DNA from: a virus
Lineage: Duplodnaviria; Caudoviricetes
DNA length: 64,000 nt
Virus record (IMG/VR): IMGVR_UViG_3300014205_000170
Location: 384,001 to 448,000 of that record
Direction: 5' to 3' (one strand)
Numbering within the stretch: the stretch's first letter is position 1; every line of letters starts with the position of its first letter. The notes below the pieces were generated by a model. The model was given only the letters and a program-made list of their open reading frames with translations, did not search any database and was not told the DNA's origin. A program made the position numbers and the translations under genes. Shown one piece after another: positions 35,231-43,525 of this stretch.

Positions 35231-35494
35231 TATTCTCAGGCCAGTACATCGGGTGCCGGTGACCTTTACCGGATAGGTTCTAGCGACGATACACTAGATA
35301 GTTTTGAGGAAGTTTCAGAAGAAACGGCCACCGAATCAGAAATGGTTTACAATTCAGATATGAAATCTTAACGATAGCATTGACTCAAAAAGGCTAAAAC
35401 GTAAAATTGCAAAATTTAAGATTGTAAAAAAGAAAAATGATGGGTTCGATTCCCTGAGTATGAAAATGGCTAATTTTTGGAAAACCTGAGATAC
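35231..35494 (+). ncRNA. Putative structured ncRNA downstream of the coiled-coil gene
   Basis: Closing helix CTCAGG/CCTGAG; hairpins CCGGTGA/TTACCGG, TCTAG/CTAGA, GTTTC/GAAAC; A-rich ~7-8-nt repeats; T-arm-like GGGTTCGATTCCC. Confidence 0.45.
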
Positions 35495-35506
35495 CTTATT
35501 TTTAAT

Positions 35507-35531
35507 GTAACCTTTTTTAAAAGTTTGCGTT
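35507..35531 (+). promoter_or_regulatory. ECF-sigma-type promoter GTAAC-N16-CGTT
   Basis: Exact 16-nt spacer; directly upstream of a tRNA-like RNA. Confidence 0.55.
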
Positions 35532-35545
35532 AAAGGATAAGAAAT

Positions 35546-35662
35546 GGCGAAATAGCTTATGCGGTAAAGCAGTTATTTTGATTAGTTTGTATGGTTTTCC
35601 CAAAGAAAGTTGTATAAAATAGTTAGAATGAAAGGAAGGGGGTTCAAACACTTCTTTCGCCA
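35546..35662 (+). ncRNA. tRNA-like RNA with anticodon arm replaced by a ~60-nt hairpin
   Basis: Acceptor GGCGAAA/TTTCGCC; D arm GCTT/AAGC; GGTTCAAA T-loop; no 7-nt anticodon loop. Confidence 0.55.
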
Positions 35663-35686
35663 CAAAAAAAAATAATTTAAAAAATA

Positions 35687-35717
35687 TTTGGATTTTAAAA
35701 AAATCTGCGTATATTTA
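35687..35717 (+). promoter_or_regulatory. Probable Bacteroidota sigma70-type promoter of leader 1 / tRNA array 1
   Basis: TTTG-N19-TATATTTA (last base deviates from consensus G). Confidence 0.5.
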
Positions 35718-35728
35718 CAAAATATAAC

Positions 35729-35818
35729 ATGAGAACAAATACGTCACATAACCATTTTAATAAATCGACTTTTAGTAATAAAAGCCGAATGGGTGTGCTT
35801 TGTGCTCTTGAAAGATAA
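35729..35818 (+). CDS. Attenuator leader peptide 1 (MRTNTSHNHFNKSTFSNKSRMGVLCALER)
   Basis: 15 of codons 3-19 are T/N/S/H/F, the amino acids of the downstream tRNAs; contains antiterminator strand GGGTGTG. Confidence 0.8.
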   Translation: MRTNTSHNHFNKSTFSNKSRMGVLCALER

Positions 35819-35876
35819 TGAGAGTAAAAAAGATTTAAAACAACACACCCTGGCCGCTTAAACGTCAGGGTTTTTT
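35791..35876 (+). promoter_or_regulatory. Attenuator 1: antiterminator/terminator pair
   Basis: GGGTGTG (35791-97) pairs with CACACCC (35844-50), which overlaps terminator ACCCTGGC/GTCAGGGT + T tract (35847-35876). Confidence 0.8.
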
Positions 35877-35902
35877 GTTTTAATGAAGTTCTTTAAAATA
35901 TT

Positions 35903-35975
35903 GGAGATGTAGCTCAGTTGGTAGAGCAAGGGACTGAAAATCCCTGTGTCAGCGGTTCGATTCCACTCATTTCCA
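35903..35975 (+). tRNA. tRNA-Phe(GAA)
   Basis: AGGGA-CTGAAAA-TCCCT; cloverleaf. Confidence 0.92.
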
Positions 35976-36008
35976 CAACGTTCGAATGGTACACGTTAAG
36001 TACCCCAT

Positions 36009-36081
36009 GGATACATAGCTCAGTGAGAAGAGCGCTCCGCTGAAGACGGAGAGGTCGGTAGTTCGATTCTACCTGTATCCA
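36009..36081 (+). tRNA. tRNA-Phe(GAA), second divergent copy
   Basis: CTCCG-CTGAAGA-CGGAG. Confidence 0.88.
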
Positions 36082-36090
36082 CAAATATCC

Positions 36091-36176
36091 GGAAGCTCCC
36101 AGTAGACAGAGGTACACCGTCTTGAAAACGGCTAGGGCAGTAAAATGCCGTGAGAGTTGGACTCTCTCAGTTTCCG
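36091..36176 (+). tRNA. tRNA-Ser(TGA), atypical D/T loops
   Basis: CCGT-CTTGAAA-ACGG; long variable arm; G73. Confidence 0.75.
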
Positions 36177-36207
36177 CAAAAAATTGTTCTTTGAAATGTA
36201 ATTTATT

Positions 36208-36292
36208 GGAGGTTTGACAGAGCGGTAATGTGCTTGTTTGCTAAACAACGGCTAGGATAACACCTACAGGGATTCGATTTCCTTAACCTCCG
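36208..36292 (+). tRNA. tRNA-Ser(GCT)
   Basis: TTGT-TTGCTAA-ACAA; long variable arm. Confidence 0.85.
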
Positions 36293-36301
36293 CAACAAAC
36301 T

Positions 36302-36386
36302 GGAAAAATGGCCGAGTGGTTTAAGGCGCACGCTTGGAAAGCGTGTAAACAGAAGTGTTTCGTGAGTTCGAATCTCGCTTTTTCCG
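36302..36386 (+). tRNA. tRNA-Ser(GGA)
   Basis: CACGC-TTGGAAA-GCGTG. Confidence 0.92.
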
Positions 36387-36402
36387 CACTAAAAAATAAA
36401 AA

Positions 36403-36708
36403 ATGAATAAATACGCAAGACTCCAACAAGAATTAAGTACAGTTGGAGAAGGTAAAATGAAAGGTTTTGGTAATTCAATGATGCCAATTATTAAATCCGG
36501 TTCGTTATTAACCTTTAAAAAAGCAGATGACTATGATATAGGTGATATAGTTTTCTGCAAAGTTAAAGGACGCTACATAGATGCACACAAGATTACAAAA
36601 AAAGATGCACAAGGTAGATGTATGATAGCAAACAATAAAGGATTTGAAAATGGATGGACTACACAAATTTTTGGAAAAGTAGTCGACATTGAAGAACCAA
36701 AAAAATAA
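36403..36708 (+). CDS. S24/S26 peptidase-like protein
   Basis: GNSMMPII.SG...GDIV...HKI. Confidence 0.65.
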   Translation: MNKYARLQQELSTVGEGKMKGFGNSMMPIIKSGSLLTFKKADDYDIGDIVFCKVKGRYIDAHKITKKDAQGRCMIANNKGFENGWTTQIFGKVVDIEEPKK

Positions 36709-36713
36709 ACACT

Positions 36714-36787
36714 GGGGGAGTAGCTATTAATGTTAGAGCGGTCCGTTGTTAGCGGAAGTGTTGGCGGTTCGAGTCCGTCCTCCCCCG
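36714..36787 (+). tRNA. tRNA-Asn(GTT)
   Basis: TCCG-TTGTTAG-CGGA; GGGGGAG/CTCCCCC acceptor; G73. Confidence 0.8.
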
Positions 36788-36792
36788 CAAAT

Positions 36793-36879
36793 TCTTGGGT
36801 TGCTTTAGTGGCCGAAAAGTCCAGACTGTTAATCTGGTGAGTTCATACTCCATCGCAGGTTCGACTCCTGCCCCAAGAG
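36793..36879 (+). tRNA. tRNA-Asn(GTT) with long variable arm
   Basis: CCAGA-CTGTTAA-TCTGG. Confidence 0.85.
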
Positions 36880-36884
36880 CAAAA

Positions 36885-36966
36885 CCATCTAAAAGATGAA
36901 AGTGGTTGTGTAGCTACTCATTTTTATCAGTTGGCAAACGAAGGTTCGAATCCTTCTTGGATGGGC
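36885..36966 (+). ncRNA. tRNA-like RNA (acceptor + T arm, no D/anticodon cloverleaf)
   Basis: CCATCTAA/TTGGATGG; GAAGG-TTCGAAT-CCTTC; one long internal hairpin. Confidence 0.5.
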
Positions 36967-37001
36967 GAAAGTTTAAATTTGTACTTTGAACAAGTTAACA
37001 T

Positions 37002-37088
37002 GGTAGATGTAACCGGTAATGGCAACCGACCAGTTTGTGGAACTGGAATGAAGAAATTCTAACGTGGGTTCAATTCCCATCTTCTACC
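37002..37088 (+). tRNA. tRNA-His(GTG) with encoded G-1 and long variable arm
   Basis: CCAGT-TTGTGGA-ACTGG; G-1/C73. Confidence 0.8.
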
Positions 37089-37105
37089 CAATAAAATTAA
37101 TTGTA

Positions 37106-37750
37106 ATGGAATTACAGATTGAAAAACAATCAAAAGGTGTGAGAATCATCTCAGGTCAAGAAGCAAAGAATAGAAGAAAGGTCTTGAACGATTTGATTAA
37201 ACTTGCAGAGGAAAAACAATATGAAGAAATAATTCTTCCTAGTGTTGAACCGCAAGCAATTTACACTGAAAAAGCAGGACAAGAAATTCTTGGACAAATG
37301 TATACGTTCAAAGATAAAGGTGAACGAGAAATTTGTTTAAGACCAGAAGGAACTGCAACGGTACAATTGATTGCAAATAAATATTGGAAGAACCAAAAAG
37401 ATGTGAAGTTGTGGTATTTTGAAAGATGTTGGAGATATGAGAGACCACAAGCAGGAAGATACAGAGAGTTTTTTCAATTTGGTGTTGAATGGATAAATCC
37501 AAGAAACATTGAAGAAGCAAAAAGAGAATTAATTGATTTGTCAAAAAATATGGTGAAGTTAGTAACTAACGAAATTGAAGTAAATGAAAGCGTAAAAAGA
37601 GGATTGAGTTATTACATCACAGAAGGTTTTGAAATTTCAATTCCATCTTTGGGAGCGCAGAAACAAGTTGTTGGTGGTGGGGCATATAAAGAAGGAATAG
37701 GATTTGCAGTAGGATTTGATAGAATGATGTTAAAATATAAGTTGCCATAG
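37106..37750 (+). CDS. hisS: Minimal histidyl-tRNA synthetase (class II catalytic core only)
   Basis: LRPEGTA; motif 2 RYERPQAGRYREFFQFGVE; RGLSYY; GGGAY; motif 3 GFAVGFDR; only 214 aa. Confidence 0.8.
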   Translation: MELQIEKQSKGVRIISGQEAKNRRKVLNDLIKLAEEKQYEEIILPSVEPQAIYTEKAGQEILGQMYTFKDKGEREICLRPEGTATVQLIANKYWKNQKDVKLWYFERCWRYERPQAGRYREFFQFGVEWINPRNIEEAKRELIDLSKNMVKLVTNEIEVNESVKRGLSYYITEGFEISIPSLGAQKQVVGGGAYKEGIGFAVGFDRMMLKYKLP

Positions 37751-37813
37751 TTCATTTGGAAGAACACTTCCTTGGTAAGGAAGAGGTGGACAGGTCGGAG
37801 CTGTCTGGCAACT
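37741..37813 (+). tRNA. tRNA-Thr(GGT), atypical T loop
   Basis: CTTCC-TTGGTAA-GGAAG; GTTGCCA/TGGCAAC acceptor; overlaps hisS stop. Confidence 0.7.
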
Positions 37814-37835
37814 ATAATAAATAAAAAAAAGTAAA

Positions 37836-38197: not shown

Positions 38198-38269
38198 ATG
38201 TTAGTAGTAGTAGCAATCGTAATAAAAAAGAAAAAGAAACCTTGGTCACAAGGGACGATTGCGTATTGA
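38198..38269 (+). CDS. Attenuator leader peptide 2 (MLVVVAIVIKKKKKPWSQGTIAY)
   Basis: AAA AAG AAA AAG AAA run immediately upstream of a terminator and five tRNA-Lys genes. Confidence 0.8.
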   Translation: MLVVVAIVIKKKKKPWSQGTIAY

Positions 38270-38325
38270 CTTTATTTTAATAAAGTTTCATAAGCCTGAG
38301 TCTCTTTGTAGATTCAGGCTTTTTT
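38213..38325 (+). promoter_or_regulatory. Attenuator 2 (1:2 / 2:3 / 3:4 hairpins)
   Basis: GCAATCGT/ACGATTGC and CCTTG/CAAGG (1:2); ACAAGGGAC with GTCTCTTTGT (2:3); terminator AAGCCTGAGTCT/AGATTCAGGCTT + T tract (38292-38325). Confidence 0.75.
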
Positions 38326-38328
38326 ATT

Positions 38329-38413
38329 GCACCTATGGCTCAATTGGTAGAGCAACCGGCTTTTAACCGGTGGGGTCCGTAAGGCGTTGAGGGTTCGAGT
38401 CCCTCTGGGTGCA
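38329..38413 (+). tRNA. tRNA-Lys(TTT) with long variable arm
   Basis: ACCGG-CTTTTAA-CCGGT. Confidence 0.85.
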
Positions 38414-38417
38414 CAAA

Positions 38418-38490
38418 CCTCTTGTAGCAAACTGGTTGTAGGCAATAGTCTTTTAAACTATGGGGCTTGGTTCGATTCCAAGCGGGAGGA
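38418..38490 (+). tRNA. tRNA-Lys(TTT)
   Basis: ATAGT-CTTTTAA-ACTAT. Confidence 0.8.
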
Positions 38491-38501
38491 CAACATAATT
38501 T

Positions 38502-38577
38502 CCATTCGTAGCAAAATTTGGTTTTTGCTCCTGACTTTTAATCAGAATAAAAGTGGGTTCGATTCCCACCGGATGGA
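38502..38577 (+). tRNA. tRNA-Lys(TTT)
   Basis: CTGA-CTTTTAA-TCAG. Confidence 0.8.
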
Positions 38578-38582
38578 CAAAT

Positions 38583-38656
38583 GCTTTCGTAGCTCAGTTG
38601 GTAGATGCATCTCACTTTTAATGAGAGGGTCGCAGGTTCGAGTCCTGCCGGGAGCA
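38583..38656 (+). tRNA. tRNA-Lys(TTT)
   Basis: TCTCA-CTTTTAA-TGAGA. Confidence 0.9.
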
Positions 38657-38677
38657 CTTATTAAAAAACAAAATACA

Positions 38678-38881
38678 ATGGAAGAATATTCATATTGGGA
38701 AATTTGGTACATTTCATGCGAAGGCAATGAAAGATGGACAACAGCAAGAGCTCCTATTGATTGGGAAGAATGGCAAGTTAGAGACCGAATACCCAGAGGT
38801 GGTTGTGGTGATGATGTATCCGAAGTAACATCAGTACACTCAACTTATGACGATGATTATTCGTGGGATTTTACAGAATAA
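38678..38881 (+). CDS. Small acidic Trp-rich hypothetical protein
   Basis: ATG after A-rich context; the longer track ORF overlaps tRNAs. Confidence 0.6.
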   Translation: MEEYSYWEIWYISCEGNERWTTARAPIDWEEWQVRDRIPRGGCGDDVSEVTSVHSTYDDDYSWDFTE

Positions 38882-38888
38882 CAACATT

Positions 38889-38961
38889 GCCTTCATAGCT
38901 TAATTGGTAGAGCTGCAGATTCTTACTCTGAGGGTTGGGGGTTCAAGTCCCTCTGGAGGCA
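38889..38961 (+). tRNA. tRNA-Lys(CTT)
   Basis: CAGA-TTCTTAC-TCTG. Confidence 0.85.
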
Positions 38962-39011
38962 CACTTATTAAAATAATGGTCTATTTATCATTACACTTAA
39001 AAACTATCAAA

Positions 39012-43204: not shown

Positions 43205-43345
43205 ATGAAACAAAGGTTCACATATACAACAAAAACTTCAACTACTTGGCCGGTTATGCCGACAACAGTGGGGGCAATTTGTATTATTATGGCCGGCGAT
43301 TATAGCCGCGATAATAAGGGTGTGTTAAACCAAGGAGTTTCATGA
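43205..43345 (+). CDS. Attenuator leader peptide 3 (MKQRFTYTTKTSTTWPVMPTTVGAICIIMAGDYSRDNKGVLNQGVS)
   Basis: Codons 13-36 contain all 12 amino acids of the downstream array and only one other residue (Ser). Confidence 0.82.
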   Translation: MKQRFTYTTKTSTTWPVMPTTVGAICIIMAGDYSRDNKGVLNQGVS

Positions 43346-43410: not shown

Positions 43411-43525
43411 ATTTTCCAAAAAATTAGTCAAGCAATGACTTAAAAGTTTGCAACGTTTTTTGACATATTGGTAACATTAAAAAGGTAATTAGGAATGGTT
43501 GTGAAATAATTCCTAATTACAAAAA

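Follow-up and report, generated by a model that had tools for sequence, protein, structure and literature searches.

We analysed a stretch of 64,000 nucleotides (nt) of viral DNA, called the window here, which covers bases 384001-448000 of the virus record IMGVR_UViG_3300014205_000170 (Duplodnaviria; Caudoviricetes). The whole record is 518,809 base pairs (bp) long, has direct terminal repeats and contains 30% G+C. About 48 transfer RNA (tRNA) genes were called by ARAGORN across this genome, nearly all within two regions, and 32 of them fall in the window. Individual tRNAs were called with default ARAGORN, relaxed ARAGORN (-ps70 and -ps90) and Rfam. By our own count, about 45 of the 48 tRNA genes sit behind one of six units, each with a leader and a terminator. 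The main subject of this study is one of the six, unit 1 (leader 35729-35818), a candidate transcription attenuator ahead of an array of Phe, Ser, Asn, His and Thr tRNAs. Positions are those of the window unless another sequence is named, and all features of unit 1 and of the Lys unit downstream lie on the + strand.

The leader of unit 1 and the genes behind it

The genes behind the leader occupy 35903-37814. They are two tRNA-Phe genes, a tRNA-Ser(TGA)-like sequence, tRNA-Ser(GCT), tRNA-Ser(GGA), an S24-peptidase-like open reading frame (ORF) at 36403-36708, two tRNA-Asn genes, tRNA-His, a HisRS-like ORF and tRNA-Thr(GGT). The cargo is eight or nine tRNAs, the S24-like ORF, which is placed between the Ser(GGA) and Asn tRNAs, and the truncated HisRS-like ORF, not biosynthesis genes or complete synthetase genes. 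The HisRS-like ORF (37103-37750, 215 amino acids) lies directly 3′ of tRNA-His. Its match to Pfam PF13393 was limited to positions 6-142 of 308, the first half of the catalytic core. Thus, it is a fragment without the anticodon-binding domain.

The leader ORF has 29 codons from ATG to TAA (35729-35818). A preliminary description, made by a model from the letters of the sequence, had placed this ORF, the motif GGGTGTG (35791-35797), the motif CACACCC (35844-35850) and an 8-bp terminator with its T tract, and all of its coordinates proved exact. It had also described codons 3-19 (35735-35785) as 15 residues from the Phe/Ser/Asn/His/Thr set plus two Lys. Our recount agreed: three Thr, four Asn, four Ser, two His, two Phe and two Lys. 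Codons for Asn, Lys, Phe, Ser and Thr are common at 30% G+C, as one would expect if the ORF were untranslated A+T-rich noise. However, among the 3676 ATG ORFs of 15-60 amino acids found in all six frames of the whole genome, only three, the unit 1 leader included, reached 15 such residues in 17 consecutive positions. Taken with the recurrent match between leaders and arrays described below, this speaks against a chance ORF, and that reading was rejected.

Four phage loci share this type of leader and are referred to as the att1-type set: G000, which is the phage studied here, and the homologous loci L003, L015 and L112. The leader ORF had the same start, stop and length in L003 and L015, a constancy that also speaks against noise, and the substitutions in these two leaders were confined to Thr, Asn, Ser and Lys. 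Downstream of GGGTGTG the leader sequence had diverged in both, despite the unchanged start, stop and length.

A motif scan found a promoter-like site of the Bacteroidota sigma-A type at 35687-35717, with TTTG at 35687-35690, a spacer of 19 nt and TATATTTA at 35710-35717. The site was identical in L003. As its 3′ end is 11 nt ahead of the ATG at 35729, the messenger RNA is predicted to be nearly leaderless, with a few bases of 5′ untranslated region at most. In flavobacteria the -7 box has the consensus TAnnTTTG and Shine-Dalgarno sequences are lacking (PMC9723704). A short 5′ untranslated region is acceptable in a phylum that does not use Shine-Dalgarno sequences. Judging from these sequence features, the site presumably serves as the promoter of unit 1 and the leader is presumably translated. 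A scan for sigma-70 promoters returned 52 sites against 50.7 expected. It was uninformative because the counts equalled expectation and because sigma-70 is the wrong model for Bacteroidota.

Predicted alternative structures in the leader RNA

The fold of the leader RNA was more stable than those of all 200 dinucleotide shuffles (z = -3.8). Region 1 (35745-35755) consists of the Ser-His-Asn-His codons and pairs with region 2 when no ribosome sits on it. In the minimum free energy fold, CACAT (35745-35749) and CCAT (35752-35755) pair with 35789-35797, and this 1:2 helix encloses an inner hairpin (35765-35788). The CACAU/GUGUG helix was kept in four of four att1-type homologues and was present in their consensus, without any change of sequence. 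The inner hairpin was nearly identical in G000, L003 and L015, even at synonymous positions. It may be a pause site at which RNA polymerase and ribosome are synchronised.

Region 2 (35789-35797), with GGGTGTG as its core at 35791-35797, has region 1 and region 3 as alternative partners, and its motif was conserved across 27 distinct units of the family. It is followed by hairpin B (35798-35832), which spans the stop codon. The sequence of this hairpin was not conserved and differed in L003 and L015. Region 3 (CACACCC, 35844-35850) overlaps the first four bases of the 5′ arm of the terminator. Together with the flanking GCC/GGC pairs, the GGGTGTG/CACACCC (2:3) helix sequesters the whole 5′ arm. 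When the transcript was cut before the 3′ arm of the terminator, this helix formed and the 5′ arm was paired upstream with a probability of 0.8. The duplex of the GGGTGTG region with the terminator arm had an energy of -16.8 kcal/mol, compared with -7.5 kcal/mol for dinucleotide shuffles (P = 0.002).

The intrinsic terminator (35847-35880, -11.8 kcal/mol) has an 8-bp stem, a 9-nt loop, a T tract and a stem-extending A tract. Its arms span 35847-35854 and 35864-35871; GTTTT follows the T tract (35871-35876). The fifth pair of the stem was U-A in unit 1, G-C in L003 and L015 and A-U in L112, which are compensatory changes. From the T tract to the first tRNA-Phe there are 22 nt. This gap is too short for a sigma-A promoter, and a separate promoter within it was rejected.

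Two further observations concern the terminator and its surroundings. The gap between the terminator and the first gene contains a motif conserved in four phages (unit 1, L003, L015 and L112), which at 35882-35902 reads GTTCTTT, A or G, AAATA, A or T, and T. In the Rfam search of the window only tRNAs scored above their gathering scores. A match to PyrG_leader over the terminator was taken as chance, since it had 29.8 bits where 65 are needed (E = 0.1), and other sub-threshold Rfam matches were treated likewise.

Other units in the same genome

The five other units repeat this arrangement with different codons and different cargo. The Lys unit (38198-38962) has a leader with five Lys codons that alternate between AAA and AAG, a terminator at 38292-38321, and four tRNA-Lys(TTT) and one tRNA-Lys(CTT). 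Unit 3, with its leader at window position 43205, has 46 codons, many of them for Thr, Tyr, Trp, Pro, Val, Met, Gly, Ala, Ile and Asp, has both GGGTGTG and CACACCC, and precedes an array that encodes exactly those tRNAs. The Gln unit (genome position 346435) has seven Gln codons, six CAA and one CAG, ahead of three tRNA-Gln(TTG) and one tRNA-Gln(CTG). In the Leu-type unit (genome position 343827), the codons CTA, AGA, TTA, GAA, CTT and ATA each have an anticodon in the array that reads them, the rare Ile(TAT) included. The sixth unit (genome 342129-343642; L020 230-1743) has a Val/Leu-rich leader of 28 codons and a terminator before a gene of 450 amino acids that resembles class I aminoacyl-tRNA synthetases (Pfam PF00133). 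It seems that the phage gates a synthetase-like gene by the same build as its tRNA arrays.

The preliminary description had suggested that the two Lys codons of the unit 1 leader would make sense if the Lys array lay on the same transcript. All four att1-type leaders (G000, L003, L015 and L112) retained Lys codons, and in each locus a Lys unit with its own leader followed. On the + strand between 35880 and 38292 no terminator was found besides a match to a tRNA T arm at 36362-36378, and the promoter motif scan upstream of the Lys leader found none. It is therefore plausible, as far as such scans can tell, that read-through transcripts of unit 1 carry the Lys unit and that control is nested.

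One more conserved stretch was noticed at unit 3. The sequence between its terminator and tRNA-Gly (43418-43470) is strongly conserved. An inverted repeat, AGTCA...TGACT, lies in it, and behind the repeat come TTTGCAAC and TTGACA. An element resembling TTTGCAAC also occurs 5′ of the leaders in L005 and L010. The stretch may act as an operator or as a second promoter.

Homologous units in phages and metagenomes

The contig L003 is syntenic with the window. Its flanking genes were 68-83% identical, compared with 85-89% in the three leader regions. Between the unit 3 leader and its counterpart in L003 there were three indels, each of exactly 3 nt. This argues for translation of the leader and does not fit noise.

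Further units were searched for with a motif scan (GGGTGTG, CACACCC and GGGTTTTT, with spacers). In IMG/VR, 12 stretches had true units ahead of tRNA arrays. In metagenomes, 18 of the 80 matches had tRNA genes downstream, and a few more A+T-rich ones were on contigs too short to show any. Most G+C-rich metagenome matches and about 20 G+C-rich bacterial matches had neither leader nor tRNA and were regarded as chance. The leaders found in this way were unrelated in sequence, and each suited its own array. For example, a leader with many Thr, Pro, Arg, Val, Gly and Ala codons preceded tRNAs for Pro, Thr, Arg, Ala, Val and Gly. Another with Ala, Tyr, Gly, Trp, Pro, Ile, Arg, Thr and Cys codons preceded exactly those nine tRNAs. 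A second scan, which was free of the motif and looked for a terminator at most 260 nt 5′ of a tRNA, revealed further units with different stem sequences. Three of them were in the cultured Cellulophaga phage phi4:1. One of the three had a perfect TTTG-N20-TATGTTTG promoter and a leader with Gln, Arg, Leu, His, Glu and Pro codons ahead of those tRNAs.

The match between leaders and arrays was tested by permuting their pairing, with whole leaders scored against all arrays. None of 20,000 permutations reached the observed match in a 16-unit set, and the same was true of a 13-unit set. In 17 independent units, one per homologue group, 0 of 200,000 permutations did so. The anticodons encoded downstream could read 215 of the 263 in-set leader codons.

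The pairing potential was also kept where the sequence changed. In the ten units found without the motif, the 3′ part of the leader was complementary to the 5′ arm of the terminator beyond shuffles (Fisher P = 1e-6). In the 27 motif-bearing units, the antiterminator extended beyond the 7-mers by a mean of 2.11 bp, compared with 1.23 bp for shuffled partners, and the terminator stem by 4.75 bp, compared with 2.28 bp. In both comparisons 0 of 20,000 shuffles reached the observed value, although the relatedness of the units inflates these extension and covariation tests, which are supportive and not proof.

Related units in bacteria

Scanning 185,579 genomes with the motif gave 30 matches, nine of which came from Bacteroidota; these assemblies measure 6-8.5 Mb and have a single unit apiece. 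The bacterial units directly preceded tRNA genes together with Ro60 (TROVE) or RtcB RNA-repair genes. One leader had two adjacent Gln codons 44-48 nt ahead of tRNA-Gln, which was followed by Ro60. Another had Phe and Cys codons ahead of tRNA-Phe, tRNA-Cys and RtcB. The bacterial and metagenome loci with such a unit are L038, L048, L032, L041, L029, L028, L042 and L132. GGGTGTG was read in different frames, as Gly-Val in phage units and as Gly-Cys in bacterial units. Thus, it is the RNA and not the peptide that has been conserved. The bacterial unit may be a switch that senses stalling and serves spare tRNAs and RNA repair, and the phage units may have been derived from such host elements.

Ribosome position and the proposed mechanism

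The effect of the ribosome was modelled by equilibrium folding with a footprint of 30 nt forced to be single-stranded. The probability of the terminator was 0.95 without a ribosome and 0.53-0.75 with the A site on codons 9-14 (His, Phe, Asn, Lys, Ser and Thr). From codon 15 up to and including the stop codon it was again 0.95-0.96, with 0.96 at the stop itself. Stalls at codons 15-19 restore termination because region 1 is then left free. The profile thus indicates that the ribosome acts mainly by covering region 1.

This differs in part from the preliminary description, in which a ribosome at the stop codon masked GGGTGTG and so allowed termination. With the A site at 35816, a ribosome covers approximately 35801-35830, and GGGTGTG is masked only at about codons 17-27. 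That part was not borne out. Termination as the default is better explained by the 1:2 helix, which had not been mentioned. The accompanying idea, that a ribosome stalled anywhere in codons 3-19 leaves GGGTGTG free, held in direction only for about codons 9-14 and not for codons 15-19, where the model restored termination. The core of the description, a stalling attenuator whose leader names the tRNAs that it gates, was strongly supported by paralogues, homologues, covariation and statistics.

We consider it highly probable from these sequence comparisons that unit 1 is a multivalent, ribosome-mediated leader-peptide attenuator of transcription in control of a phage array of tRNA genes. How the switch would turn, and in answer to which physiological signal, we infer as follows. 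Host RNA polymerase would initiate at the promoter of Bacteroidota type, a few bases 5′ of the ATG, and the 29-codon leader would be translated by a ribosome. If charged Thr, Asn, Ser, His, Phe and Lys tRNAs are ample, the ribosome would run on, covering region 2 only in transit. Behind it region 1 would pair again with region 2, the terminator at 35847-35880 would form, and transcription would stop 22 nt before tRNA-Phe. If any of those charged tRNAs is scarce, the ribosome would stall in the sensor codons and cover region 1. GGGTGTG would then be freed to pair with CACACCC and hold the 5′ arm of the terminator, and transcription would continue into the Phe-Ser-Asn-His-Thr tRNAs and the HisRS-like gene and would probably reach the Lys unit. 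The tRNA products would relieve the stall, which amounts to negative feedback with tRNA made on demand.

Several observations weigh against this interpretation. At equilibrium the terminator won or tied in every state of unit 1. In four of the other five units it won outright whatever the mask, so that a graded effect was seen in units 1 and 3 only. As the terminator dominates at equilibrium, the switch must be kinetic, as in classical attenuators, and the first helix to form while the polymerase is at the terminator would decide the outcome. The core 1:2 and 2:3 helices of unit 1 offered no covariation of their own because they are invariant among close homologues. The first extension pair of the unit 1 antiterminator is a C/A mismatch, and its 2:3 helix therefore consists of the 7-bp core and GCC/GGC. 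In the Lys units (38198-38321; L015 12481-12594), no significant complementarity was found between the 3′ part of the leader and the 5′ arm of the terminator; these units may switch by another route. The conserved motif after the unit 1 terminator could be a phage-specific promoter, which would also count against attenuation, or else a processing signal or part of the switch.

The match of the unit 1 leader to its array is also imperfect at the level of codons. The preliminary description had noted that Ser is sampled with TCA, TCG, AGT and AGC, covering the TGA and GCT isoacceptors downstream. All four codons are present, but the tRNA-Ser(TGA) supposed to read TCA and TCG is only a weak call. 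This sequence (36091-36177) was called by ARAGORN with -ps70 only; with default settings the program did not report it, and Rfam gave no match to it even at E<=1. It looks degenerate, with a T stem of 4 bp and an odd T loop. It is the sole candidate reader of TCA and TCG in the array and is doubtful. In addition, the Thr(GGT) of the array does not read the leader codons ACA and ACG, and the leader of L015 retained Thr codons though no Thr tRNA was found in the L015 array. The array of unit 1 also has a third Ser tRNA (GGA), whose codons TCC and TCT are absent from the leader.

Alternative explanations

In a very improbable alternative, the translated leader does sense the supply of tRNA, yet the output is something else, such as precursor cleavage or other processing, an effect on Rho or on RNA stability, or a switch of reversed polarity. 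The Lys units would be easier to understand in this way, as their antiterminator was not detectable, and the bacterial relatives ahead of Ro60 and RtcB hint at a link with RNA damage. However, in most units the segment after the sensor codons pairs with the 5′ arm of the terminator and covaries with it, which is the hallmark of classical polarity. The mask model also shifted in the classical direction.

A still less probable explanation is that terminator and antiterminator form a real switch, but one set by a trans-acting factor at GGGTGTG/CACACCC (a protein, a small RNA or, as in T-boxes, an uncharged tRNA) and not by ribosome position. The strict conservation of the two motifs across unrelated leaders, and across phage and bacterial frames, would suit a binding site, and equilibrium folding alone did not produce a clean switch. 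Such a factor leaves unexplained why the leader codons track the content of the array. Moreover, the Gln, Leu, synthetase and phi4:1 units keep the complementarity but not the motif. Neither a T-box nor any other such Rfam family reached its gathering score in the window, and no T-box match appeared at E<=1 in 35250-36300; a T-box was rejected.

Least credible of all is that the terminator merely ends a short or upstream transcript, that the array has its own promoter for host or phage polymerase and that the ORF is noise; the conserved motif after the terminator in four phages would fit such a promoter, and the sigma-70 scan gave no information on it, but the short gap and the leader statistics given above stand against both parts.

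Comparison with known attenuators

In enterobacteria, multivalent attenuators are known at thr (Thr and Ile) and at ilvGMEDA and ilvBN (Leu, Val and Ile), and hisL, trpL and pheL are further leaders of this kind. Attenuation at pheL has been reviewed (PMC3082878). The phage units resemble all of these in the short 5′ ORF, the clustered regulatory codons, the 2:3 and 3:4 helices, which exclude each other, the intrinsic terminator and, as predicted features, the competing 1:2 helix and the use of ribosome position as the signal. With thr and ilv they also share a single leader that senses several amino acids. There are four differences. What the phage unit would gate is tRNA genes (plus a HisRS fragment) instead of biosynthetic enzymes, which makes the product the same kind of molecule as the one sensed. 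A single phage leader would respond to between five and ten amino acids. The setting is a phage with a Bacteroidota-type promoter and no Shine-Dalgarno sequence. Finally, the ORF contains region 2, which is placed 19 nt upstream of the stop codon and not after it.

In Escherichia coli, the pheM leader attenuator controls pheST, which encodes phenylalanyl-tRNA synthetase, by sensing the cognate charged tRNA. Here a gene of the translation apparatus is under leader attenuation, and the sixth phage unit, with its synthetase-like gene, is the direct analogue. Unlike the phage units as a whole, pheM gates a synthetase only. T-boxes also report tRNA charging through a choice between terminator and antiterminator ahead of translation-related genes; they bind the uncharged tRNA directly, through a specifier loop and a conserved T-box sequence, and have no leader ORF. 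As far as we know, T-boxes are not a feature of Bacteroidota.

Closer in taxonomy are the leaders of Flavobacterium psychrophilum, where transcriptome data gave clues to attenuation upstream of amino-acid operons (PMC9723704). They come from the same host phylum, have the TAnnTTTG promoter type and have been proposed to work by a mechanism of the same kind (PMC9723704). However, they stand ahead of amino-acid biosynthesis operons, and tRNA genes were not mentioned (PMC9723704). The phage units would work as the thr, ilv and pheM attenuators do and have their structural features, the 1:2 helix being a predicted one. They are set apart by their tRNA cargo, by how many amino acids a leader covers and by their occurrence in a phage. 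To our knowledge, no tRNA gene has been known to be gated by leader-peptide attenuation. A full-text literature search did not find attenuators ahead of tRNA genes described.

Beyond unit 1, we regard it as likely that tRNA genes under translation-sensing attenuation form a class in Bacteroidota phages (huge phages and phi4:1), in which the leader spells the array codon by codon, with a bacterial form before spare tRNAs and Ro60 or RtcB. Their control would be homeostatic, with tRNA made on demand in answer to host tRNA depletion or codon-usage mismatch during infection. Why and when phages use their own tRNA genes is a long-standing question. If the interpretation is true, array tRNAs are made according to translational need, which favours the compensation and tRNA-depletion hypotheses. 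These would then be the first leader-attenuated tRNA genes known to us, in a feedback loop whose product is the sensed molecule. The idea is directly testable, because the cultured pair phi4:1/Cellulophaga baltica carries three units. The leaders also provide an annotation rule that predicts which tRNAs share a transcription unit, and they are compact parts for codon-specific translation sensors.

Additional observations around unit 1

In the 636-kb phage LR756504.1, the 24 kb around the match to the S24-like gene yielded no tRNA and no unit. Just 5′ of the unit 1 promoter-like site there is a tRNA-like sequence (35545-35663). Rfam gave it a tRNA score of 28.8 bits against a gathering score of 29, and ARAGORN with -ps90 called it as tRNA-Asn(GTT) with an intron of 42 nt.
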